IMG/VR virus record: IMGVR_UViG_3300027286_000002 | DNA: 64,000 nucleotides | Direction: 5' to 3' (one strand) | Origin: a virus | Lineage: Duplodnaviria > Caudoviricetes | Shown here: piece by piece, positions 6,813 through 58,893 of the stretch | Layout: every line of letters begins with the position of its first letter | Numbering within the stretch: position 1 is the first letter of the stretch | Position numbers and translations under genes: made by a program | The notes under the pieces: generated by a model | What the model was told of the DNA's origin: nothing | Seen by the model: the letters and a program-made list of their open reading frames with translations, nothing else | The model's database searches: none

Positions 6813-7031
6813 ATGTTAGAAATGCTTATTGACTACACAGACCACTTATCATTCATGGTAGATGAAACCTACTTAGATTTTCCCAACCACATGATTGCAT
6901 TTGAAGAAGATCTTTATGGCAATCTTTATCTTATTCAAAAGGATTGGATCTTTAGCAAAACACCTGTAGAATTTGAAGAAGCAGTAGAAATTGTTAAGAA
7001 CTTGCCTGAACCTATTTATTATCTAGATTAG
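6813..7031 (+). CDS. Hypothetical protein
   Basis: AAAGGAAAAAC RBS; 72 aa. Confidence 0.65.
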   Translation: MLEMLIDYTDHLSFMVDETYLDFPNHMIAFEEDLYGNLYLIQKDWIFSKTPVEFEEAVEIVKNLPEPIYYLD

Positions 7032-7248
7032 GTGCAAGGTAAAGATCACTTGAATTCTGCCACTCTGATTTATGTAAAGATTTAGCTATACTTAAAGATA
7101 GTGAACATCTAAAATATTCAGGATATACATAAAAACCTCTTGTACCACCATCTAATCTACAAGACCTTGAACTTATAGAAGACAAAGCAAATTTAAAAGT
7201 CTTAGAATTTAAAACTTCATCTGATGATATTTCTAACCAATAGATCAT
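7012..7248 (-). CDS. Mini-protein of the putative stand-alone methyltransferase specificity (TRD-like) family, array 1
   Basis: Probable start MIYWLEISS at 7248 (TAAAATG junction); family pattern W..S.V..SS..G..FR..LS..K..W.N..YLAP; closest to 54930-55166. Confidence 0.8.
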   Translation of the reverse strand: MIYWLEISSDEVLNSKTFKFALSSISSRSCRLDGGTRGFYVYPEYFRCSLSLSIAKSLHKSEWQNSSDLYLAPNLDNK

Positions 7249-7249
7249 T

Positions 7250-7489
7250 TTATATTTCACCACACTTTCCTATATACCTATCTGAATTATTTATCCAAGT
7301 AGGTTTAGACAACACTCTAGCACCAAATAAAGCAATTGCTAGTCTAAAGTTATCTGTGTATAGGTAATGTCCTATTCCTTTTATTGCCAGCTGTTTTGTT
7401 GGTGAGGTGGATGATGTTATATAAACACCTTGTAATGTATGACATACATCATTACTGTCATTGCTAAAGAAACCATAATGACTACTCAT
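7250..7489 (-). CDS. TRD-like mini-protein, array 1
   Basis: HYGFF.N.SNDV...TSS...KG.G.Y...NFR..I.LF.AR.L.K..WIN..D.YIGK; ATGA overlap. Confidence 0.85.
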   Translation of the reverse strand: MSSHYGFFSNDSNDVCHTLQGVYITSSTSPTKQLAIKGIGHYLYTDNFRLAIALFGARVLSKPTWINNSDRYIGKCGEI

Positions 7490-7719
7490 TTATCTTTTCC
7501 TATATACCTATCTTGATCGTTTATCCAATTATGTTTGGATAAAACCCTTGCACTATATAAAGCAATACAATGCCTTATGTTGCTTTGGTGTATATATGTT
7601 CCCATTCCTTTAATATCTCTGATAGTACCTGCTGTTGTAGATGATGCTAGATAAACAAGTTGACCAGAAAACTGTACATTATTTCCATATGATGCAAGGA
7701 AGCCATAGTGATTACTCAT
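7486..7719 (-). CDS. TRD-like mini-protein, array 1
   Basis: Family pattern; strongly similar to 11095-11340. Confidence 0.85.
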   Translation of the reverse strand: MSNHYGFLASYGNNVQFSGQLVYLASSTTAGTIRDIKGMGTYIHQSNIRHCIALYSARVLSKHNWINDQDRYIGKDK

Positions 7720-7956
7720 TTATATTTCTTTTCCTATGTAAACATCATTGTTATTTAACCCTGATCTCTTAATAAGAGATCTTGCACCAAACAGTCCTAT
7801 GGACAACCTAAAGTTATCTTTATACATATATGTACCAAAACCTTTAATATCTTTAGTAGTGGCTGGTGAAGTAGATGATGTTAGATACGCCCCAGATGCA
7901 GAATGACATACATCATTACATCCATTGTGAAAAAAACCATAAGGTGTTTTAGTCAT
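7720..7956 (-). CDS. TRD-like mini-protein, array 1 (first gene)
   Basis: Family pattern; AAAAGGAATTAACATG start. Confidence 0.85.
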   Translation of the reverse strand: MTKTPYGFFHNGCNDVCHSASGAYLTSSTSPATTKDIKGFGTYMYKDNFRLSIGLFGARSLIKRSGLNNNDVYIGKEI

Positions 7957-8011
7957 GTTAATTCCTTTTCAATATCTTATAAGATTTCTACAAGAAAGGA
8001 CTGCAAAAAAA

Positions 8012-9154
8012 ATGACAAAAGAATTATTAAATGATCTTATCCAAACCATGTCACATACTGAAATGGCATCTCATCTTAATATCTCGCTTAACCATTTAAG
8101 AAGACTATTAAGAGTTCACAATATCAAAAAACCTTTAAAAGATAAAGCAGGCAATCCTATTAATCTTAAATATGTTGAAACCTTGTATGATGCAGGACAT
8201 CCTGTTTCTAAAATCCATATTATGGTTAATGCTTCTTTTGATGCCATCTCTAACTACCTCAACCTAAATAAAATTCGTATTAGTAAAAAACTACTACAAC
8301 ACTACTTTATTGATGAAAAACTTTCCCTTACACAAATAGCTGATCGTTTTGGATCATCTCTTTCTACTATTAAAAAATACCTACTACTCTATGAAATCAT
8401 AAAACCTGATATTCATATTGAGAAACACGATTTAGAATCACATCCTAATATACTTGTTTCCGAACTAGCTATTCTCTTTAACACAGATAAAGAAACGATT
8501 AGCTACTTTCTTAAAAAATATGACTTGTCTAAAAAAGGCAAAGTCAATCAAGAAAAACTACAACAGCTTTATTGTGTTGAACATAAATCACTACAAGAGA
8601 TTGCAGACCATTTTAAAATCTCACATATAACTCTTTGGCGAAGGATTAGACAATATAAACTCACTAGAGAATTTAATCCTGATATAGACCTCTTTGAGCA
8701 AAAACTCTCTGAATATAGAGACCTACCTATGCACAAGGCTAAACAAAACCTTGCGAAATATTATAATGTTTCTGTTGGTGAAATTGAAATCTTTTTTAAA
8801 AAGCACAATCTACTTAAAAAAAGAAAAAGAAGAAAGGTTACCTACACAAATGACCAGCTAAGAAAGATGTATGAAAGACTTGGGATTAAAGGTCTTATGA
8901 AGAAACTAGATATGACTGAATATAATGTTAAAAGAGCATTAAAGAGAAATGGTATCTTGCCATATAGCAAACCAAATAAAAGACTTGTCTTATCTATTCC
9001 TAAAGACCATATCAAATATCTCTACCATAAGAAATATGAACATTATAATGCACCTAGTGCAAGACAAGCAATGGCAGATGAATTAGGTTTATCTTTATAT
9101 GCAGTTACAAGGTATATTCAAATGTATAATCTAAACAGACCAAGAATTTTCTAA
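8012..9154 (+). CDS. Tandem helix-turn-helix repeat protein (paralog of 5287-6399)
   Basis: Probable start MTKELL at 8012 after GAAAGGA; about 7-8 HTH-like units. Confidence 0.8.
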   Translation: MTKELLNDLIQTMSHTEMASHLNISLNHLRRLLRVHNIKKPLKDKAGNPINLKYVETLYDAGHPVSKIHIMVNASFDAISNYLNLNKIRISKKLLQHYFIDEKLSLTQIADRFGSSLSTIKKYLLLYEIIKPDIHIEKHDLESHPNILVSELAILFNTDKETISYFLKKYDLSKKGKVNQEKLQQLYCVEHKSLQEIADHFKISHITLWRRIRQYKLTREFNPDIDLFEQKLSEYRDLPMHKAKQNLAKYYNVSVGEIEIFFKKHNLLKKRKRRKVTYTNDQLRKMYERLGIKGLMKKLDMTEYNVKRALKRNGILPYSKPNKRLVLSIPKDHIKYLYHKKYEHYNAPSARQAMADELGLSLYAVTRYIQMYNLNRPRIF

Positions 9155-9167
9155 AAGGACACTTCTT

Positions 9168-9440
9168 ATGAAACCATTAAATCAAAATGTGATTATCAAA
9201 CCATCACCTGTAGAACCACAATCCCAATCAGGTTTATTTATTCCAGATACTGCTAAACAAGACCAATCTATTGCTACTGTGATTGCAATAGGCACAGGTT
9301 ATCCAAATGGCAAACCTTTAACAGTAAAGGTTGGCGATAAGGTAGTTTATTCCAAGTATGCAGGTGTAGAACTTAATTATGAAGATCAAGAGTATTTGGT
9401 CTTATCTGAATCGGATCTTTTGGCTGTGATTAAAAATTAA
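9168..9440 (+). CDS. groES: Co-chaperonin GroES (Cpn10)
   Basis: MKPL..NVIIKP...SGLFIPDTAK...VIAIGTG...VKVGDKVVYSKYAGVEL....YLVLSESDLLAVI, full Cpn10 signature. Confidence 0.95.
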   Translation: MKPLNQNVIIKPSPVEPQSQSGLFIPDTAKQDQSIATVIAIGTGYPNGKPLTVKVGDKVVYSKYAGVELNYEDQEYLVLSESDLLAVIKN

Positions 9441-9494: not shown

Positions 9495-9758
9495 ATGAGA
9501 AGATTTGCAAATACAGAATCATCAGAAATGCAAGCTAAAGTAATCCAAAAAATTCTTGAAAACCAAATTGCAGATAACTTTTATATAAATGATGAAATGA
9601 AAAAAAAAGTTAAACAGCTTTTAGCAACTATGGATATGGAAGCTATCGATGAAGATCTTATGGATGATATTGATTATGCTTTTGATGCTTATGCTAAAGC
9701 CATGCAGAATTTCTTTTATTATGCAGAGAAATTAGAAGATCTTATTAAACTTGTTTAA
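9495..9758 (+). CDS. Hypothetical protein
   Basis: 87 aa helical; AAGGTAAAGATAAAATG. Confidence 0.7.
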   Translation: MRRFANTESSEMQAKVIQKILENQIADNFYINDEMKKKVKQLLATMDMEAIDEDLMDDIDYAFDAYAKAMQNFFYYAEKLEDLIKLV

Positions 9759-9937
9759 AAAACCATTTTAGAAAAGAATGGTTTAAACCAAGTTAGCATT
9801 ATTGTACTTCCTATTCCACAACCTAATGCAGTTCCTATAAAGCACAGACAAAAAGTTAAGATTGCTTTATTTCTTATCTTATTATCACTCGCATCTACAT
9901 ATCCTGTTCTCTTTAAGAAAAACTCTAACTCATTCAT
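9755..9937 (-). CDS. Small membrane protein at end of array 2
   Basis: One hydrophobic helix; ATGA-coupled to 9934-10158. Confidence 0.55.
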   Translation of the reverse strand: MNELEFFLKRTGYVDASDNKIRNKAILTFCLCFIGTALGCGIGSTIMLTWFKPFFSKMVF

Positions 9938-10158
9938 TTATCTTCCTTACATGGTGCTAAATACCTATTAGGATTTAATATCCAATTTCCTCGTCCAATA
10001 ACTTCTCTATTTCTTGCAGTGGACAAGGCTACAAACACTCTAAAATTAATAGGAAAGATTTCAATACCTGATTTACTTGATGCTATGCTAGATAAGGTAA
10101 AAACACTATGCTCGTTTCTAGTAACTTCATTACTACTTGTTTCAAACCAACAGATCAT
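9934..10158 (-). CDS. TRD-like mini-protein, array 2
   Basis: MICWFE.SSNEV...LSS...G..I...NFR...AR...NW...YLAP. Confidence 0.85.
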   Translation of the reverse strand: MICWFETSSNEVTRNEHSVFTLSSIASSKSGIEIFPINFRVFVALSTARNREVIGRGNWILNPNRYLAPCKEDK

Positions 10159-10364
10159 TTTTCTTCATCCTTATTAGGTGCTAGATACACATTTTCATAT
10201 TTTATCCAATCATCTTGTATAATTCTTTTTGCCACAAATAAAGATATTCTTTTCTTATCATATCCATTTAAAAAAGCACTATGTCCTATTTTAGGTATGC
10301 TACTTAATACAGTAGTGCCTTGTGCATACAAATGCACAATATTACTATCAAATACAAAATACAC
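10155..10364 (-). CDS. TRD-like mini-protein, array 2
   Basis: GTG start; close paralog of 11576-11791 (MYFVFDSNIV...KIGH...GYD.KRISLFV...W....VYLAP). Confidence 0.8.
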   Translation of the reverse strand: MYFVFDSNIVHLYAQGTTVLSSIPKIGHSAFLNGYDKKRISLFVAKRIIQDDWIKYENVYLAPNKDEEK

Positions 10365-10366
10365 TT

Positions 10367-10582
10367 TTAGTTATCCTTATTAGGTTTTAAAAACCTGTCT
10401 TGATCATTTATCCTAGTATGTTTAGGTAAAATTCGAGCATTAAATAATCCTACACTTTCTCTAAAATTACTGTCCTGTACATATAAGCCTCCACTATGAG
10501 AATAAAATTTACAGGATTGCAAATAAACAAGTTGCTGTCCTTGCCATACATTATTTGAATCACTTATGAAATAAAATCTCAT
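10367..10582 (-). CDS. TRD-like mini-protein, array 2
   Basis: F..DSNNV..Q.VYL.S...GLY...NFR...LF.AR.L.K...IND.D.FL.P. Confidence 0.85.
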   Translation of the reverse strand: MRFYFISDSNNVWQGQQLVYLQSCKFYSHSGGLYVQDSNFRESVGLFNARILPKHTRINDQDRFLKPNKDN

Positions 10583-10583
10583 A

Positions 10584-10796
10584 TCATTTCTTTCTTAAAG
10601 CTAGATAAACATCATCTCTATTTATAAAGCTGGCTGTACTCACTAACCTTCTACTCATATATAAACAGACAGATCTTCTTATATTAAAAGGCTCTACATA
10701 TAGACCATGATTTACAGATGATACACCACTTAATAAAAATACATCCTGTATGTTTTTTCCTATGTTGTTATTATTGTTCTCAAACCAATAAACCAT
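10584..10796 (-). CDS. TRD-like mini-protein, array 2
   Basis: Family pattern; AAGGAAGATAGCTTATG start. Confidence 0.85.
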   Translation of the reverse strand: MVYWFENNNNNIGKNIQDVFLLSGVSSVNHGLYVEPFNIRRSVCLYMSRRLVSTASFINRDDVYLALRKK

Positions 10797-10828
10797 AAGC
10801 TATCTTCCTTATATATAGAAATCGTGAT

Positions 10829-10861
10829 TTTTTACCTATATTGTAAAAACATAGGTAAAAA
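10829..10861. terminator. Inverted repeat (possible terminator) inside array 2
   Basis: TTTTTACCTAT-N11-ATAGGTAAAAA in the only intergenic gap of the array. Confidence 0.5.
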
Positions 10862-10862
10862 C

Positions 10863-11102
10863 TTATATTGTTTTACCTATATAGACATCGTTACTGTTTA
10901 TCCAATTTGATTTTATTAATGATCTAACACTATATAAAGTAATACATCTTCTCATATTATTCTTATACATATATAAACCATTTCCCTGTACCTCTCCCCT
11001 ATTCATATGACCCGGGGATGTGAAAGATGTCATATAAGCACCTTGAGTAGCTCCTGTAATGTTATTTTCTTTAGATGTGAAAAAACCATAGTGATTACTC
11101 AT
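10863..11102 (-). CDS. TRD-like mini-protein, array 2
   Basis: MSNHYGFF subfamily. Confidence 0.85.
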   Translation of the reverse strand: MSNHYGFFTSKENNITGATQGAYMTSFTSPGHMNRGEVQGNGLYMYKNNMRRCITLYSVRSLIKSNWINSNDVYIGKTI

Positions 11103-11340
11103 TTATCTTATCCTCTCTTCCCATGTACCTATCTTGGTCGTTTATCCATGTGTGTTTTGATAACACCCTTGCACCATATAAAGCAATGACTTGCCGTATG
11201 TTACTTTGGTGTATATATGTTCCAAATCCTTTTAAGTGATGTTTTCCACCATCGGATGTTGAGGACATTAAATAAGCACCTTGAACAGACCACTGTACAT
11301 TATTACCTTCACTGATAAAGAAACCATAGTGATTACTCAT
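11095..11340 (-). CDS. TRD-like mini-protein, array 2
   Basis: MSNHYGFF subfamily; strongly similar to 7486-7719. Confidence 0.85.
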   Translation of the reverse strand: MSNHYGFFISEGNNVQWSVQGAYLMSSTSDGGKHHLKGFGTYIHQSNIRQVIALYGARVLSKHTWINDQDRYMGREDKINE

Positions 11341-11573
11341 CTTATCTTATCCTTACCTATATAGGCATCATTACTGTTTATCCATTGTGATTTTATAAGT
11401 GTCTTTACTACAAATAAACTCACTGTCTGTCTTATATTATTTTTCTCTACATAATAACCAGCTTGCCCCATTAAACCTATACCACATCTAGGATAAGACC
11501 TTGTACTTAATAAATAACAATCCTGCATACCATGCTGTATGTCATTCCCATTACTATTAAAATAACAAATCAT
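11337..11573 (-). CDS. TRD-like mini-protein, array 2
   Basis: MICYFNSNGNDI...LLST...GYYV..NNIR...LFV.K.LIK..WIN..D.YIGK. Confidence 0.85.
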   Translation of the reverse strand: MICYFNSNGNDIQHGMQDCYLLSTRSYPRCGIGLMGQAGYYVEKNNIRQTVSLFVVKTLIKSQWINSNDAYIGKDKIR

Positions 11574-11575
11574 TC

Positions 11576-11791
11576 TTATCTCTTTGGTGCTAAATAAACA
11601 TCATCATGCTTTTCCCATGATGATTTAATAACTGATCTACATACAAATAAAGATATTCTTTTTCTGTCATATCCTCTTAAATATGCACAGTGTCCTATCT
11701 TTGGCTCACCACTAAAAAGTAAAACCCAAGAAGTATTCGTCCTCACTATATTACTATCAAATACAAAATACATTCTATTACTTCGGATCAT
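11576..11791 (-). CDS. TRD-like mini-protein, array 2 (first gene, ATGA-coupled to the methyltransferase)
   Basis: ATG at 11791 overlaps the MTase TGA (TCAT at 11788-11791). Confidence 0.8.
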   Translation of the reverse strand: MIRSNRMYFVFDSNIVRTNTSWVLLFSGEPKIGHCAYLRGYDRKRISLFVCRSVIKSSWEKHDDVYLAPKR

Positions 11792-13350
11792 TCTTTTAAA
11801 AATCCATATTCATATACACCCGGTCTTAACTTATCACCTAAAACCTTATGCAATTCTTTTAACTTCTTAAAATCTGCATTATACTCTTTTTCCCAAAATC
11901 CCTTTAACTGATACCACCCACAATCCCAACATAATAACTGCAACTCAGGATTCGCTTTAGCATATGCCTCTCTTGTTGCCAATGACTTTAACCATAATTC
12001 TGTAGCATGAACTAATAATGCCACTGCCTCTTCACTTAATGTCAATTCTGCTATTAATGTAGACACATAAGATTCTTCATAATACTTCTCATAATCTGCT
12101 AACATCAATGCACTATGCTCTTCTATTGCACCACGAATGCCATATCTCTCTAACCAAAAGAAATGATTCTTAATTTGCCAAATCTCACCACCCCATGATA
12201 CATCTCTCATAGATGTACAATTATTCTTCGTTTCAAAAATAGAATAAATATGTCCATCATCCACCCACTGCTCATAGCCTGTCTTTACTTCACTTGATGT
12301 ATGCTTATATTTATTCCCTTCGTCTAACCACCTCTGTGTAAATGGTATCGATGGATATGCAATATATTCAATTTCTTTTTCAGGTGCTTTTTTAATTGGA
12401 CCCGTCTTTTCCCTTTCCTTGATTTTAAGACCACTTGTCATAATTGGATATTCATAGGTTTCCATATCTTTAATAGGTTCTCTAACCCACTCACTAGCTG
12501 GCATATGGTTATCGCAATTATAAATCTGTTTCCATCCATAATGACTTGCATCAAGATTTTTAATTTCTAACTTTGGATCTGTCTTAGTTTTCCCTTCACT
12601 CCAAATCGTAAAGCCTACTCCCCATTCAGATGAAACACCTGCAAATGCACTCGCATTAAAGAAAAATCCTGCTTTAAATTCAAAGGCATTGTAATACCAT
12701 TCTCTAAATTTCTTTGCTGTTTCCTGAATCATAAACTTGATTGGTGAAAAGAAACATAAACTGACTTTCTTATATCCAAAATACTTTGCCTGTCTTGCAC
12801 ATTCAAAAATAAATTGAAAATATAAATTAGAACGACAAGCACCTAAATGCAACATCTTTTCTTTAACAAGTGTATTACTCACACCTTCTTTATTTTCTTC
12901 ATCATCTGCAAGTGTACCTGCCGCCGCATATGGTGGATTAATAAAGAACACAAGTCTTTTACCTGCCTTTGCTCCTGCATATAACTGATCTTGCACTGCA
13001 TCTGGAATAACATTGCTTTCATCACCTAAGCTAAACAAACATCCATCTGTATCTGTTGGATTTAAGAAATCATACTTAAAAGCATTTTTAAATCCTTGCT
13101 TATGTAGTAAATCCACTTCAGGTTGCTCTAATGTAGATAAGATTAAATTCTTAAAATCATATTCTCTAATCAAATTGCCTGAGCCTGAACAACAATCCCA
13201 TACAAGACTTTCTTCTTTCCAAGTTTCACCTAAGACATTACTTGTTAAGGTATGTGCTTGATCCACCCATAAAGCTGGTGTAAAAAATGCACCTTGTCTT
13301 GTTCGGATTTCATTCTCTAAGGTTTCATCATATCTGTGATGTTCACTCAT
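11788..13350 (-). CDS. Orphan N6-adenine DNA methyltransferase (gamma class), target-recognition region apparently shortened
   Basis: Motif X GAFFTP, motif I VWDCCSGSGNL, motif IV FINPPY; no nuclease domain. Confidence 0.9.
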   Translation of the reverse strand: MSEHHRYDETLENEIRTRQGAFFTPALWVDQAHTLTSNVLGETWKEESLVWDCCSGSGNLIREYDFKNLILSTLEQPEVDLLHKQGFKNAFKYDFLNPTDTDGCLFSLGDESNVIPDAVQDQLYAGAKAGKRLVFFINPPYAAAGTLADDEENKEGVSNTLVKEKMLHLGACRSNLYFQFIFECARQAKYFGYKKVSLCFFSPIKFMIQETAKKFREWYYNAFEFKAGFFFNASAFAGVSSEWGVGFTIWSEGKTKTDPKLEIKNLDASHYGWKQIYNCDNHMPASEWVREPIKDMETYEYPIMTSGLKIKEREKTGPIKKAPEKEIEYIAYPSIPFTQRWLDEGNKYKHTSSEVKTGYEQWVDDGHIYSIFETKNNCTSMRDVSWGGEIWQIKNHFFWLERYGIRGAIEEHSALMLADYEKYYEESYVSTLIAELTLSEEAVALLVHATELWLKSLATREAYAKANPELQLLCWDCGWYQLKGFWEKEYNADFKKLKELHKVLGDKLRPGVYEYGFLKE

Positions 13351-14177
13351 TTTTTTTCTTTCACATGGTCTAAATGGTTAAAAAAAGTTTTCACTAAATC
13401 TGCTCTTGAAATTTTATCTTCCAACTCTTTTCTTAAAAAGAAACACTTGATCTTTGAATCATATTTATGTGTTTCCACTGATGCAAACTCTGCATCATCT
13501 TTTAAGATATATGTTGTCTTTAACTTCCCTGCAAAATCCAATACTATTAAATACAAACTCTGATCTTTAAATCCTAAAGAAAATACTTTGCTCGCTTTTC
13601 TTGATGCACCTTCTGCAATCTGATGCCACATCAAATTGCCTATTAATTCTACACCTAAATCTTTGGCATCAAAATTTGAGATATTTGCATATCTATTTGT
13701 ACGAAAGACTGCTCTCTTATCATCTAATGTTAGTCCTCTTAATTCTTGATTGCTCGCATCTACATGATAAGTATTATAGATATTAATCATATCACTTAAA
13801 ATCCCTGCCTTTTTCATCAGCTCAATCTTATTTTGCAAAATCCTTTTTGAACCATATTCCAAATCAAATTTTTGCCTGTATAAAACATCTCTTTGCTTTT
13901 CTAGTTCTAACATTTCTTTTTCTAATGTTGAATTAATTGCAACTGCCTCTTCTGTATGTTTTTCATATATATGACTATAATCATTCGGATATGATGTCAT
14001 TTGCTTTAATGGCTTTAATACTGCTCTACTCGCAAGCACTGCTTTATGCACACCATCATATTTATTTGATGCCTCTCGATATTCTTTATCAAGAGTTTCA
14101 TATCTTTTTTGTATAGATGCTAAAAACATCTCACACTGCTCTAAATATGTCATTTCTGCTTTCTCCTTTGTAAGCAA
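13347..14177 (-). CDS. Hypothetical protein with N-terminal coiled coil
   Basis: 276 aa, ATGA-coupled to the MTase. Confidence 0.7.
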   Translation of the reverse strand: MLTKEKAEMTYLEQCEMFLASIQKRYETLDKEYREASNKYDGVHKAVLASRAVLKPLKQMTSYPNDYSHIYEKHTEEAVAINSTLEKEMLELEKQRDVLYRQKFDLEYGSKRILQNKIELMKKAGILSDMINIYNTYHVDASNQELRGLTLDDKRAVFRTNRYANISNFDAKDLGVELIGNLMWHQIAEGASRKASKVFSLGFKDQSLYLIVLDFAGKLKTTYILKDDAEFASVETHKYDSKIKCFFLRKELEDKISRADLVKTFFNHLDHVKEKK

Positions 14178-54709: not shown

Positions 54710-54928
54710 TTATTTATCTTCTTTCTTTGGTGAGATATATAAATCAGAATCTACAATCCAATTATTTCTGCCTACGATTTCTCTTGCTCTTGCAATCGAT
54801 AATGCCATACACCTTCTAAAATTATCTTTTGTAATCACAAGTCCAGCTCCTTCATAATTGTTTATATAATGACATAGCTTTTCATTATATTGAAACCTAT
54901 TGCCACCATGATGAAACCAATATAACAT
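54710..54928 (-). CDS. TRD-like mini-protein, array 3
   Basis: Family pattern; closest to 55625-55846 (NNYEGAG/NNYQGAG). Confidence 0.85.
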   Translation of the reverse strand: MLYWFHHGGNRFQYNEKLCHYINNYEGAGLVITKDNFRRCMALSIARAREIVGRNNWIVDSDLYISPKKEDK

Positions 54929-54929
54929 T

Positions 54930-55166
54930 TTATCTACATTCTTTCTTAGGTGCTAAATACACATCTGCTTGATTTATCCAAGTATGTTTTATTAAAGATT
55001 TAGATACACTTAATGCTATGCTATCTCTAAAATAATAAGGCTGTAAAAAGAAACCTTGTTTGCCACAATCATCTCTACTAGCTTTTGAAGTAATAGAACT
55101 AATAAAATACTTATATTGTGATGAGTGCATTACATCATTTGATGATAATTCTAACCAACAAATCAT
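54930..55166 (-). CDS. TRD-like mini-protein, array 3
   Basis: Family pattern; closest to 7012-7248. Confidence 0.85.
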   Translation of the reverse strand: MICWLELSSNDVMHSSQYKYFISSITSKASRDDCGKQGFFLQPYYFRDSIALSVSKSLIKHTWINQADVYLAPKKECR

Positions 55167-55390
55167 TTCTCTTCATCCTTAATAATAGGAGCATAATATC
55201 TATCACAATTATTTATCCAAGTTCTATTTATAACATCTCTTCCTCTTGCTACATAGATAGACATATTTAATCTAAAGTTTTTCTGATCTATGTAATATCC
55301 TGAATGTCTACTAGATACACTTGATAAAAAGAAGACATGAGAATCAATAGATGTGATGTCATTATTTGAATTTTCAAACCAACAAATCAT
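55163..55390 (-). CDS. TRD-like mini-protein, array 3
   Basis: MICWFENSNNDI...FLSS...GYYI..KNFR...AR...TWIN..D.YYAP. Confidence 0.85.
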   Translation of the reverse strand: MICWFENSNNDITSIDSHVFFLSSVSSRHSGYYIDQKNFRLNMSIYVARGRDVINRTWINNCDRYYAPIIKDEEK

Positions 55391-55395
55391 TTTAC

Positions 55396-55623
55396 TTATC
55401 TTTCTATAGTAGGTTTAAAATACATATCATTAGCACGATGCCAATTCTCATATTTCCTAGAATCCATAAGATAACCTGTTCTCACAATATAGAAAGCTAA
55501 AGCATCTCTAAAATTAGTTTCTTTTATAGGTAATCCTGTGTTTCCAAAAGAACTTGAAGTGATTAACACAAATCGAGTATTTCTTTTCACTTCATTCGCT
55601 GACATCTCAAAACTAAAAATCAT
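55396..55623 (-). CDS. TRD-like mini-protein, array 3
   Basis: F..S.NEV...TSS...G..I...NFR...Y..R...NW...D.YF.P. Confidence 0.8.
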   Translation of the reverse strand: MIFSFEMSANEVKRNTRFVLITSSSFGNTGLPIKETNFRDALAFYIVRTGYLMDSRKYENWHRANDMYFKPTIER

Positions 55624-55624
55624 T

Positions 55625-55846
55625 TTACTTATCTCTCTTACATGGTGCTAAATGCACATCACAATCTTGATACCAATTTCTACCATTAGGCTGGACTAAT
55701 GCTCTAACATTAAAGAAAGCTATACTCTTCCTAAATGAGTTTCCCTCCCTTATATGAAATCCTGCACCTTGATAGTTATTTACTAAGAATACTAACTCTT
55801 TATTGTATCTTACTAAATTTCCATGTGAGTGAAACCAACAGATCAT
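55625..55846 (-). CDS. TRD-like mini-protein, array 3
   Basis: Family pattern. Confidence 0.85.
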   Translation of the reverse strand: MICWFHSHGNLVRYNKELVFLVNNYQGAGFHIREGNSFRKSIAFFNVRALVQPNGRNWYQDCDVHLAPCKRDK

Positions 55847-55847
55847 T

Positions 55848-56069
55848 TTACTTATCTTTCTTACATGGTGCTAAATATACATCAGGATCGTTCATCCATG
55901 TATTTTCAGGTAAAGTCCTAGCTATAAATAAACCTATTGTATTTCTAAACGATTCTTTATTTCTAGGATACATTCCACTAACATTAGATGATAATTTAGA
56001 TGAAATAAAACATACAAGTAAAGGATTGAACTGCACATTATTGCCATTATTATTAAACCAACAGATCAT
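55848..56069 (-). CDS. TRD-like mini-protein, array 3
   Basis: Probable start MICWFNNNGNNV at 56069. Confidence 0.85.
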   Translation of the reverse strand: MICWFNNNGNNVQFNPLLVCFISSKLSSNVSGMYPRNKESFRNTIGLFIARTLPENTWMNDPDVYLAPCKKDK

Positions 56070-56286
56070 TTTTTGTTCTTTCCACTGATAATGCCAAATA
56101 CACATCAGGATCATTCATCCAAGTATGTTTAGGTAAAGACCTTCCTATATATAAAGAAATTGACTTCCTAAAATTATCTTTTCTTATATAGAAACCATGT
56201 TGATTGTGATATGCACTACTAAATAATGCTACTTGCCAATGATTATGACATACACAACCACCACGATTATTAAAATAACAGATCAT
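56053..56286 (-). CDS. TRD-like mini-protein, array 3 (first gene, 6 bp after the DNA polymerase stop)
   Basis: MICYFNN...FSS...HGFYI..DNFRK...Y..R.LPK.TWMNDPDVYLA. Confidence 0.85.
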   Translation of the reverse strand: MICYFNNRGGCVCHNHWQVALFSSAYHNQHGFYIRKDNFRKSISLYIGRSLPKHTWMNDPDVYLALSVERTKNDLLV

Positions 56287-56292
56287 TTTAAT

Positions 56293-58893
56293 TTATTCCT
56301 TTAATAAGATAGATACATCTCTACCTTGATACATAATCTTAATGTCTTTACCTGCATTATTCTTAATCCATTCGCTTAACCTGTCTGTTTCACTATGAGA
56401 TAACTCACTCAACTCATAAATCTCATAATGCTTTGCTTTTTCCTCTTGCTCCGTGCTTAAGGTTGTTTCATTTAATACCTTTGGCTTTGGCTGTCCACTA
56501 TGATCTACTTTAAAAGCATTTACTAAAAACTCATCTTCACCTTTGCCTTCCCTTAACTCTTTCAAGTCATAAGGCACAGACCAATCTTTTCCTATCTCAA
56601 CATCCACTGTTAATGGTACAATCCAATTCTTATTTTGCAATGCTTTATTCCTAACCATAATATCACATAACAAAGGTATCGCTTCACCTATAATGTCTTT
56701 ATGGATTTCAAACACAATTTCATCATGCACTGTTAAAATCATCATTAGCTTATCAAACCAATTTCTCTTTTTAACATTCTCATAAATTAAACTCATTGCA
56801 ATCTTAGTAATATCTGCACTCGTACCTTGCACAGGTGAATTTACTGCCTTTCTCTCATCCTTTGATCTCAAAGAAAACTCTTTAGATTTAATATCAGGCA
56901 TTAACATTCTTCGACCAAAAGCTGTTAATACATATCCATTTTCTTTGGCAAAATCCACTTCCTTTTTCCACCACTTTGTTAAACCTTTATATGTCTTTGT
57001 AAAGGTTTGATATTTCTCATCACCTTCTTCTTGAGTACAACTAATAGTTCTAACTACTGCTTTACCTGTACCACCATAACATAAAGCAAAATTAACACCT
57101 TTCGCATTGCCTCTTAATGCTTTCCAATCAGGTCTTTTCTTTGCCTCTTCACCATAAAAAGCAACTGCTGTCAATGTATGCAAATCACCTATTTTATCTG
57201 ATCCACATATACAGATAGCTGGTGGTATAATAGGAAATCCATCTTCGCCTCGTTCTTTAGTATATTTACGATTGCATGATGAACATCTAAAAAATTCTTC
57301 AATCCATAAAGGCTCTTGACTAATGTTTGTTACAATTCTTAACTCAACACCTGCATAGTCAATTGCTACTAAATAATGATCAGGATTTCTTACTGCAATA
57401 CACTCTCTTAATCTTGAAGTAATCATTGGTCTTTTCGGATCATATCCTGATGGAATACCTTGAAAAGGTACTCTACAACCACCATCTTTTGTCTCCCATG
57501 GTCTACTTGTAGTACCACAACTAAAACGACCTGTATCTGCTCCGAACTGATTAAACTTTGGTTTTAATGTACCATCATCTGCAATATCTTCTTTCATAGG
57601 TATGAGATATTGACCTAATGCTTTAGCTAGTTCTCTTAATCTTTTAATCTTTCTCACAAATGGAAAAGTATCGGATGCCTCTTCAATTACTTCATCTAAA
57701 ACATCAGCACCTGTTGCCACTTGACCACTTGCAGTAGTTTGTAAATTAGGTACTTCTAATTCTCTAAACATCATGCCTAATTGTTGAGAAGATAAAATAT
57801 CATATTTATATTCAAAGACTACTTCTTCTTTTTGTTTAGGATTAGTTAAAGATGCTACCATTTTTCTAGCTACAAAATCTTCACCTGCCATATCTAAATG
57901 TGGATACATACGATCAGCTTCTTTTCTTGCCTCGTCTATGCAATCTTTAAAGCTATCTGTATTATCTGTATTAAACTTATTAACACCTTTTAAATCGCCT
58001 TTCATGATTTTAATGTATGCTGGCATAACATCTCTACCAAGTAATTCATTTGCTCCTTCATATACTTCAATAAGGCTGTCCATCCATTCCTTTTGACCAA
58101 TCTTAATAAACTCTTGTGTTTTCTTTTGATCAATATAAACTCTGTTTCTGTGCATCCACCTAACTGATGTATTGCATTTCTTTTCTATCATATAAAGACT
58201 AATCATTTCTTTAGGAAAGATGTCTTTTAAGATATTATAAAGTTTAAGAGTACATAAAGCATCAGCACCTGCATACCATACACAAGCATCCCAAGACGGA
58301 TCAAGAGTAGAATAATCTTTAATTTTAGATTTAGGAATGAGTTCATCAAGTTCAATCATTTCCCAACCTAATTTATCTTTAGACATATCTTTAAGACCAC
58401 GACCACCTTTATCACGACTGTTCATAAGACAAGCCATAATATAGTTATCTTCCCATAGCTTTGGATTTTCAAATCTTTCTTTACCTAAAAGAGTTTCGCC
58501 ATTATATTCTAAAAACTCTTGATCAAAAGCACCATTATGGAATATAGGAATAGCAGTAGCATTTACATTAAGCAAGCGACTAAATTCTCTATCTATGATT
58601 GACCATGAAACATTATGTTCTGTACCTGCACTGTGTCTAATAGGAAAGTAATATGCTTTCTTTTCATTCGGAGCAATAGAAATACCTACAATAGATGCTC
58701 TTGTTCTACCATGAAAAACACGATTATCTAAACCTGTTGTTTCTAAGTCTATGCCATAATGACTAGATGCCAAACATTCATCAATAGCTTGTTTAATATT
58801 ATCTTTAGTACCTAAAATGAGATCAACTTCTTTCATCCATTTTTTAGGTTTAACATCTGGTCTTTGTAGTGATTCAAAGAAATCTGAAAACAT
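56293..58893 (-). CDS. Family A DNA polymerase with 3'-5' exonuclease
   Basis: Exo I IDLETTG, Exo II FHNGAFD, Exo III YAGADA; motif A IDYAGVELRI, motif B RGNAKGVNFALCYG, motif C TVHDEIVFE. Confidence 0.95.
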   Translation of the reverse strand: MFSDFFESLQRPDVKPKKWMKEVDLILGTKDNIKQAIDECLASSHYGIDLETTGLDNRVFHGRTRASIVGISIAPNEKKAYYFPIRHSAGTEHNVSWSIIDREFSRLLNVNATAIPIFHNGAFDQEFLEYNGETLLGKERFENPKLWEDNYIMACLMNSRDKGGRGLKDMSKDKLGWEMIELDELIPKSKIKDYSTLDPSWDACVWYAGADALCTLKLYNILKDIFPKEMISLYMIEKKCNTSVRWMHRNRVYIDQKKTQEFIKIGQKEWMDSLIEVYEGANELLGRDVMPAYIKIMKGDLKGVNKFNTDNTDSFKDCIDEARKEADRMYPHLDMAGEDFVARKMVASLTNPKQKEEVVFEYKYDILSSQQLGMMFRELEVPNLQTTASGQVATGADVLDEVIEEASDTFPFVRKIKRLRELAKALGQYLIPMKEDIADDGTLKPKFNQFGADTGRFSCGTTSRPWETKDGGCRVPFQGIPSGYDPKRPMITSRLRECIAVRNPDHYLVAIDYAGVELRIVTNISQEPLWIEEFFRCSSCNRKYTKERGEDGFPIIPPAICICGSDKIGDLHTLTAVAFYGEEAKKRPDWKALRGNAKGVNFALCYGGTGKAVVRTISCTQEEGDEKYQTFTKTYKGLTKWWKKEVDFAKENGYVLTAFGRRMLMPDIKSKEFSLRSKDERKAVNSPVQGTSADITKIAMSLIYENVKKRNWFDKLMMILTVHDEIVFEIHKDIIGEAIPLLCDIMVRNKALQNKNWIVPLTVDVEIGKDWSVPYDLKELREGKGEDEFLVNAFKVDHSGQPKPKVLNETTLSTEQEEKAKHYEIYELSELSHSETDRLSEWIKNNAGKDIKIMYQGRDVSILLKE

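Follow-up and report, generated by a model that had tools for sequence, protein, structure and literature searches.

A phage methyltransferase of predicted N6-adenine type lacks the core of a small domain whose homologs are encoded by mini-gene arrays in the same genome

We analysed a stretch of 64,000 nucleotides (nt), referred to here as the window, from IMG/VR virus record IMGVR_UViG_3300027286_000002 (Duplodnaviria; Caudoviricetes). On its minus strand, at 11788–13350, the window carries a gene for a putative DNA methyltransferase of 520 amino acids (aa), and an array of very short genes begins where this gene ends. It was observed that the enzyme lacks the core of a domain of about 67 aa that is kept by its more distant homologs, and that 19 paralogous mini-genes of the genome encode free-standing copies of this domain, as proteins of 69–81 aa. 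The mini-proteins were confirmed to be homologous to the deleted domain, at a level of similarity far beyond chance. The segment that is encoded by the mini-genes and is absent from the window enzyme is called MINI in what follows. We lean slightly towards the view that the mini-proteins dock in trans on the enzyme as interchangeable specificity modules, which would make it a multispecific anti-restriction methylase.

The window enzyme has the make-up of a catalytic core of the γ-class N6-adenine type. Motif I, VWDCCSGSGNL (about residues 50–60), precedes motif IV, FFINPPYAAAG (about residues 135–145); since motif I comes before the NPPY of motif IV, the enzyme has the γ-class order. Residues D52, G56, N138, P139, P140 and Y141 were invariant in an alignment of 23 sequences, made up of the window enzyme, 12 close homologs and 10 more distant ones. 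When hidden Markov models (HMMs) for the parts of the family were run against the protein, MT_N matched residues 8–310 and MT_C matched residues 357–520, and no match was obtained for MINI or for EXT. The protein begins at the catalytic domain, without the N-terminal extension of its longer relatives, and no nuclease domain is fused to it. A Pfam scan of the enzyme gave no match up to E = 1. The best Pfam match of its relatives was Eco57I (E 0.1; 13 bits, the cut-off being 25.3), and the thresholds of Eco57I and N6_Mtase (PF07669, PF02384) were not reached. PDB sequence searches with the window enzyme and with a profile of the N-terminal extension as queries returned nothing, and scans of the enzyme, the mini-proteins and the neighbouring genes against Pfam, PHROGs, NCBIfam and PADLOC gave sub-threshold noise only. 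As judged from motifs and structure models, the best explanation is that the window protein is an orphan, nuclease-less member of an Eco57I-like (Type IIG-style) family of γ-class N6-adenine methyltransferases that is without annotation. N6-adenine methylation is its predicted activity.

A database search returned 330 homologs of the window enzyme. Twelve of them are close (P0001–P0012; 67–91% identity, 510–557 aa). The remaining ones are 34–44% identical, and most are 800–870 aa long because of an N-terminal extension of about 260 aa. In the 23-sequence alignment, gaps of 27, 8 and 6 columns (about 41 in total) were common to the window enzyme and all 12 close homologs, and all 10 more distant homologs were ungapped at this place. 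Six of these ten are also without the N-terminal extension; hence, the loss of the extension and the loss of the segment were separate events. The MINI-less enzymes group as a single clade with a long stem when a tree is built from the concatenated core. An earlier reading of the DNA, made from the letters alone (the sequence-only reading), had pointed to a methyltransferase with only 45 residues at 12280–12420, and had put the equivalent span of homologs at roughly 80–90. Both figures held. The 45 residues (312–356; nt 12283–12417, minus strand) lie between ...MTSGLKIKE and GYEQWVDDGHIYSIF, at a place where homologs carry the MINI domain of about 67 aa and a linker. The equivalent span, taken from SGLK.K to GYE.W in BLAST pairs, is about 81 residues in P0014 and similar in P0057. 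The gap map thus shows a gap of tens of residues that is clade-wide.

The 45-residue remnant can be divided, on the basis of the gap map, the lack of a MINI HMM match and linker conservation, into a conserved bridging linker (about residues 312–336) and a retained tail, W341...Y348. The idea that QRW...Y is what remains of the end of the domain is supported: W341 does not vary in the family alignment, and its distance to the Y (a spacing of 7) is that seen in the mini-protein tail. Within the clade, the mean pairwise identity of the bridging linker (26 residues) was 0.755, compared with 0.749 for the rest of the protein. On either side of the linker, at residues 291–310 and 361–390, conservation of the clade enzyme is at its highest (identity 0.94–0.99). 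This pattern of conservation argues that the retained linker is under constraint. The sequence-only reading had further proposed a precise excision and not decay. The deletion is monophyletic, the linker is conserved and the catalytic motifs are intact, so that this part of the proposal stands; the excision, however, did not take the whole domain, as the C-terminal W...Y tail of the domain (about 15–20 residues) is still present in the window enzyme. Simple gene decay was rejected, the deletion being clade-wide in enzymes with a conserved remnant and intact catalytic motifs. It may be noted that one population contig has 87 diverged bases in place of the stretch 12281–12370, which covers the remnant linker.

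When an HMM of the 19 mini-proteins was run against the domain-keeping homologs, it matched all of them (108/108) exactly at the gapped segment, with E values of 1e-9 to 1e-31. Nearly all of these matches are full-length (HMM positions 3–70), e.g., at residues 589–652 of P0014 and 588–651 of P0057. The same HMM gave E 1.8 for the window enzyme and E 2.7 for P0001, and no match even at E 10 for the other 11 members of the clade. In the reverse search, the family profile matched the mini-genes at profile positions of about 317–396. As these reciprocal results agree, an alignment artefact was rejected. The segment missing from the clade is thus matched by the mini-protein HMM in every homolog outside it, and the window enzyme has no such match. 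Neither of the contrary outcomes named in the sequence-only reading, an ungapped alignment with the closest cellular homologs or an HMM that maps to unrelated proteins, was seen: the gap is present against homologs outside the clade, and nearly everything that the HMM matched, among the 150 best of 488 matches, was either a member of this methyltransferase family or a free protein.

The latter point comes from a search of 1.84 billion representative proteins with the mini HMM, by which 488 proteins were found. Among the 150 best of these 488, all but one were either members of the methyltransferase family, in which the catalytic and C-terminal parts lie on the two sides of MINI, or free proteins of 65–100 aa (96 of the 150). 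The exception, P0206 (1466 aa), has no recognisable methyltransferase part. The free-standing minis among these 150 make up about 100 clusters at 50% identity, and the source names of the cluster members are 'hypothetical protein' or none. An ESM Atlas look-up of one mini-protein gave matches at chance level.

Free minis and MINI-less enzymes occur together. All five MINI-less enzyme loci (the window, L009, L012, L013 and L097) have a mini-gene array directly downstream of the enzyme gene, with 14 mini copies in L009, four in L012, at least nine in L013 and eight adjacent ones in L097. The complete 316-kb genome of L097, whose enzyme is 82% identical to that of the window, holds 12–13 minis, again in three arrays. 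In contrast, no free mini-gene was found within the 6–10-kb flanks of domain-keeping enzymes in about 140 loci (80 cellular and about 60 viral). The 80 cellular loci are from bacterial and archaeal assemblies, mostly metagenome-assembled genomes, and some of their contigs may be phage-derived. Two viral records with a domain-keeping enzyme were searched whole, and no free mini-gene was found in them. Among the neighbours of the MINI-less enzymes are other methylase genes, three PF00145 (C5 methylase) genes in L013 and one N6_N4 methylase gene in L012. This gene context at the homologous loci is the support for a proposed counter-restriction role.

The 19 mini-genes of the genome are arranged in three arrays, all on the minus strand: A (7012–7956, four genes), B (9934–11791, eight genes) and C (54710–56286, seven genes). 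Array B starts at the methyltransferase gene itself. The start of B1 (11576–11791, 71 aa) overlaps the methyltransferase stop by 4 nt (ATGA), and it is followed by B2 (11337–11573, 78 aa), B3 (11095–11340, 81 aa; 4-nt overlap with B2), B4 (10863–11102, 79 aa), B5 (10584–10796, 70 aa), B6 (10367–10582, 71 aa), B7 (10155–10364, 69 aa, with a GTG start) and B8 (9934–10158, 74 aa). Array A consists of A1 (7720–7956, 78 aa), A2 (7486–7719, 77 aa; 70% identical to B3), A3 (7250–7489, 79 aa) and A4 (7012–7248, 78 aa from an ATG, with an open reading frame (ORF) that could begin at GTG 7263). Array C begins with C1 (56053–56286, 77 aa), directly downstream of a DNA polymerase I-like gene (56293–58893), and continues with C2 (55848–56069, 73 aa from an internal ATG, the ORF being open to 56114), C3 (55625–55846, 73 aa), C4 (55396–55623, 75 aa, the most divergent copy), C5 (55163–55390, 75 aa), C6 (54930–55166, 78 aa) and C7 (54710–54928, 72 aa). 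The packing is tight, mostly with gaps of 1–2 nt or overlaps of 4–8 nt and with a single 66-nt gap before B5, and most mini-genes have purine-rich leaders that resemble Shine–Dalgarno (SD) sequences. The largest array, B, is read as translationally coupled to the methyltransferase gene. That the mini-genes are spurious ORFs was rejected, since there are 19 intact paralogs which are conserved in four other phage contigs and in about 100 database clusters.

The MINI domain behaves as a module within the wider family. Single chains with more than one MINI were found, with two copies in P0018, P0022, P0124, P0167 and P0219, three in P0123, four in P0122 and five in P0121, and at least six lineages include such forms. 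Those with 3–5 copies whose contigs were read (L014, L015) look phage-borne. P0121 (L015:698–3712, 1004 aa) adjoins a small terminase gene. It is circularly permuted, with the C-module first, then the catalytic domain and then five tandem units of hairpin plus MINI, and the chain ends in a MINI tail. It follows from this permutation that MINI need not be covalently joined to the C-module. The five units of P0121 are almost identical in their C-terminal halves and divergent in their N-terminal halves; units 3 and 5 are near-identical throughout, variable halves included. Some relatives (L098, L151, L154, L155 and L162, with P0192, P0210, P0225 and others) are split just before MINI into an ORF for the extension and the catalytic domain and an ORF of about 300 aa for MINI and the C-module. 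In L098 the two parts are in one frame with a single stop codon between them, which may represent stop-codon recoding; in the other split relatives they are in different frames.

The domain is also partitioned into a constant and a variable part. The conserved scaffold of MINI consists of N10, S23–24, G33, N-F/W-R at 40–42, A-L, A-R, W58, D63 and Y65, and the variable stretches are 6–9, 13–19, 25–32 and 35–39. The minis of the window, 95 other free minis and 146 embedded domains all show this split. The N-terminal half of MINI, together with the linker that precedes it, was the most variable region in 107 long homologs (2.2–2.65 bits, compared with 1.3–1.8 elsewhere). The mini sets also differ between close relatives. 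The core is 91% (L009) or 82% (L097) identical to that of the window, yet many minis have no counterpart above 50% in these genomes, and those that are shared lie in different arrays. Such comparisons indicate that the mini repertoires turn over faster than the core. Population contigs from four freshwater runs included variants without exactly B1 (joint 11578→11792) and others that join array A minis to array B minis at gene boundaries. Because of these variant contigs, co-occurring strains are taken to differ in array content, and the metagenome joints are only suggestive of strain differences in whole mini-genes.

The place of MINI in the fold was examined with structure models of a domain-keeping homolog (P0106, 39% identical to the window enzyme) and of its C-terminal half (C-half). 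The AlphaFold2 model of P0106 (predicted local distance difference test score (pLDDT) 92, predicted template modelling score (pTM) 0.90) shows a class I methyltransferase domain at the N-terminal end. Its structural matches include DrdV (Z 19.6), LlaGI (18.1), the Type I M subunit HsdM (17.3), M.TaqI (17.1, aligned range 20–419), MmeI (16.5), PglX (15.3), M.BseCI and CamA, all of them DNA N6-adenine enzymes; BpuSI is matched with Z 15.8. MINI (residues 340–404 of P0106) is modelled as a strand, a short helix, two strands, a helix and an extended tail, and is within the region aligned to the recognition domain of M.TaqI. When the C-half alone (pLDDT 96.8) was submitted to Foldseek against the PDB, nothing was found at E below 0.4. 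When it was aligned without bias to 48,161 chains, all eight best matches came from adenine methyltransferase systems, either as recognition regions or as specificity subunits: M.BseCI 325–571 (Z 5.4), PglX 674–929 (4.6), CamA 335–577 (4.3) and DrdV 641–1029 (4.0), followed by EcoR124I HsdS, an archaeal HsdS, LlaBIII and another HsdS (3.4–3.7). As these similarities are weak, it is from position, ranking and variability that the term 'recognition domain' is derived. A search of AlphaFold DB with the C-half gave a match to the C-terminal part of a protein whose annotation is Eco57I-methylase-domain-containing, and matches to free proteins of 270–360 aa that consist of the C-half only.

The N-terminal extension of the long forms has an invariant D38-G39 and E51-x-K53. 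This motif suggests that the extension is a PD-(D/E)xK nuclease as in Type IIG/IIL enzymes, and homologs with the D...ExK extension occur in many bacterial genomes. A long form with this extension was also seen in L163, a 436-kb megaphage-like contig (the context of P0057); hence, very large phages, too, have the 'cellular-type' long form. L163 also has an anti-Pycsar Apyc1-like gene, two PARP-domain genes, and genes for an NAD-dependent ligase, a sigma factor, a primase and a family A polymerase.

We propose the following mechanism. In the ancestor of the phage clade, the core of the α/β MINI domain would have been excised from the methyltransferase. The site lies between the catalytic domain and the conserved C-terminal module, in the region that corresponds by position to a target-recognition domain. 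A mini-protein may bind the vacated site non-covalently, by means of its conserved C-terminal half (N-F/W-R..A-L..A-R...W.N..D.Y-L.P), and its variable N-terminal loops would then face the DNA and read it. One catalytic core with N modules could thus methylate N motifs, and the phage genome would be protected from many host restriction systems at once. For the fuller statement of this proposal we hold the chances to be even: that a domain-excised N6-adenine core is completed in trans by any of 12–19 co-encoded micro-recognition proteins of about 70 aa, that the result is a combinatorially multispecific and rapidly re-assortable means of counter-restriction, and that the cis multi-domain and permuted enzymes of other phages are evolutionary intermediates.

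Several observations weigh against docking in trans. The 67-aa domain is much smaller than the recognition domains of Type I or Type IIG enzymes (about 150–200 aa). With Z at most 5.4, the C-half is but weakly similar to recognition domains of solved structure, and it is the consistency of the ranking that counts; a few other 15-residue windows of the long homologs reach 2.3–2.4 bits in variability. The core keeps its own W...Y tail and each mini-protein also has one, so that a simple lock-and-key complementation would bring two tails to the same site. A further point is the distance of arrays A and C from the enzyme gene (2.6–43 kb). No expression data were found, and no RNA runs were found to hold the window stretch. 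Prediction of the complex between the core and mini-protein B1 gave scores of 0.00, 0.78 and 0.00 in three runs, which speak neither for nor against binding.

The distant arrays, which stand beside genes of the helix-turn-helix (HTH)-array type and the DNA polymerase gene, can also be read in another way. The split may be a historical fission followed by a new function, in which the minis descend from the excised domain and act independently, as small DNA binders or regulators or as an expanded family, and the core is non-specific or has a fixed specificity. The enzyme's own tail and its conserved linker might then close the gap. Independent function, however, needs no loss of MINI in every mini-bearing genome, and the strict co-occurrence of minis with MINI-less enzymes (5/5 loci, compared with 0/about 140) is difficult to fit to it, as is the apparent translational coupling to the enzyme gene, which is kept at 70–91% core identity. 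We therefore regard this explanation as unlikely.

Two further explanations were considered. The free domains could be decoys or inhibitors that mimic and poison host restriction–modification enzymes of the same family or PglX-like ones, or that mask target sites on the phage DNA. Phages often carry diversified anti-defence families, the presence in many bacteria of homologs with the probable nuclease extension would provide targets, and the variable loops suggest that the targets are many. Yet this leaves unexplained why the phage enzyme lost exactly MINI and why the linkage is strict; phages with intact enzymes never carry minis in the loci examined, and a covalently tethered domain of a host enzyme would be hard to displace. 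We consider such a role improbable. The mini-genes could also be a silent cassette library that recombines into the methyltransferase gene and switches its specificity in the manner of a shufflon or of gene conversion. Shufflons of specificity genes are known for Type I systems, and both the contig joints at mini-gene boundaries and the presence or absence of whole genes in the population would agree with it. But all 19 copies are intact ORFs with their own start codon, most have an SD-like leader and most are start/stop coupled; a cassette was inserted in none of the 13 clade enzymes, and neither a recombinase nor a system of inverted repeats was noticed next to the arrays, where no dedicated search was run. 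A silent library is, in our estimate, very improbable.

Other genes lie around the arrays and the enzyme gene. Divergent from array A, at 7955–9154 (plus strand), is a gene for a 399-aa protein of many HTH units, which is matched by more than 20 HTH Pfam families; similar genes (products of 372–378 aa, with HTH Pfam matches) flank the second mini-gene array of L009. Between arrays A and B, at 9168–9440 (plus strand), the phage encodes a Cpn10/GroES homolog (PF00166, E 6e-26). A 60-aa ORF at 9755–9937 (minus strand) shares 4 nt with the last mini-gene of array B. The C-terminal half of its product is hydrophobic, so this may be a small membrane protein that is translated together with the array. 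On the other side, a 276-aa gene without a family match (13347–14177, minus strand) overlaps the methyltransferase start by 4 nt and may be in the same operon. L009, L010 and L011 have a 268-aa gene at the same upstream position.

The window is part of a 146.7-kb virus record with an estimated completeness of about 47% and a G+C content of about 31%. As the relative with the 82% identical enzyme has a complete genome of 316 kb, the window genome is taken to be that of a jumbo phage. DNA near-identical to the window was found in 20 river, lake and freshwater metagenomes; when GenBank phages were searched by megablast and tblastn, no match was obtained.

If docking in trans is true, the mini-proteins would be the smallest free-standing DNA-specificity modules known for a methyltransferase. 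Among adenine methylases, the system would then be the first equivalent of the classic multispecific cytosine methylases of phages, extended to separate and reshufflable genes, and it would account for the ability of some jumbo phages to pre-empt many restriction systems although they have one catalytic gene for this. It could also be of use where methyltransferase specificity is to be engineered, as a natural plug-and-play scaffold with 19 variants in one genome. Members of the family occur by the hundreds in bacteria, archaea and phages, and no Pfam, NCBIfam, PHROG or PADLOC model exists for them; therefore, an entire family of enzymes, probably Type IIG-like, is at present without annotation. 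Since no Pfam, NCBIfam or PADLOC model reaches threshold, the family is without a description, and our literature search found none of such a system, including by a term search in a jumbo-phage comparative genomics paper (PMC7824862).

Three kinds of known system were compared with that of the window. In Type I enzymes (HsdM2–HsdS), some loci of which have several or phase-variable hsdS genes, the catalytic γ-class N6-adenine chain and the specificity element are separate polypeptides; here the enzyme and the minis are likewise encoded by separate genes, and the minis would be the specificity element. The genes for the two parts are adjacent and coupled, as for hsdM and hsdS of EcoKI (PMC3510504), and one core can in principle use alternative specificity proteins; HsdS chains are also, weakly (Z 3.4–3.7), among the best PDB matches of the C-half model. 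The differences are considerable. The free piece here is a 70-aa sub-domain, compared with a subunit of about 400 aa that has two recognition domains and a coiled-coil. The mini-proteins, of 69–81 aa, are single small α/β units in which the two-domain organisation of an S subunit is not found, and the catalytic chain has kept the greater part of the recognition-side scaffold (MT_C). Moreover, 12–19 intact genes are present at once, unlike the one expressed hsdS with silent partial copies, and the system is phage-borne, has no nuclease partner and gives no HsdM or HsdS Pfam signal.

The multispecific cytosine-5 (C5) methyltransferases of Bacillus phages (SPR, phi3T and rho11s type; cited in PMC8936443 and PMC12707154) serve in counter-restriction and have one catalytic core with several tandem recognition modules of about 40–70 aa. 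The relatives with several MINI copies in cis (P0121–P0124, 2–5 copies) look like an adenine-methylase counterpart of these. However, the SPR and phi3T type enzymes are C5 methylases with all modules in one polypeptide, whereas the window clade is of the γ-class N6-adenine type and has its modules as separate genes, which in the window lie in three arrays. The window enzyme has zero modules in cis, and P0121–P0124 are likewise of the N6-adenine type.

The third comparison is with the Type IIG/IIL enzymes (the Eco57I family, MmeI, DrdV and BpuSI) and the PglX of BREX, which provided the best structural matches of the P0106 model and have a weak profile similarity (Eco57I and PglX) to the family. 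The long family members share their layout, an N-terminal D...ExK domain followed by the methyltransferase and a recognition-side module. The window enzyme differs in being without the N-terminal domain and the MINI core, and the C-half was not recognisable by Foldseek as an MmeI or Eco57I recognition fold. In its proposed working, then, the system resembles the Type I M and S subunits and the multispecific C5 methylases, and is a member of neither. By its modelled fold and its layout it appears to belong with the Eco57I-like Type IIG enzymes, as a form without the nuclease domain that lies below the thresholds of the curated families.

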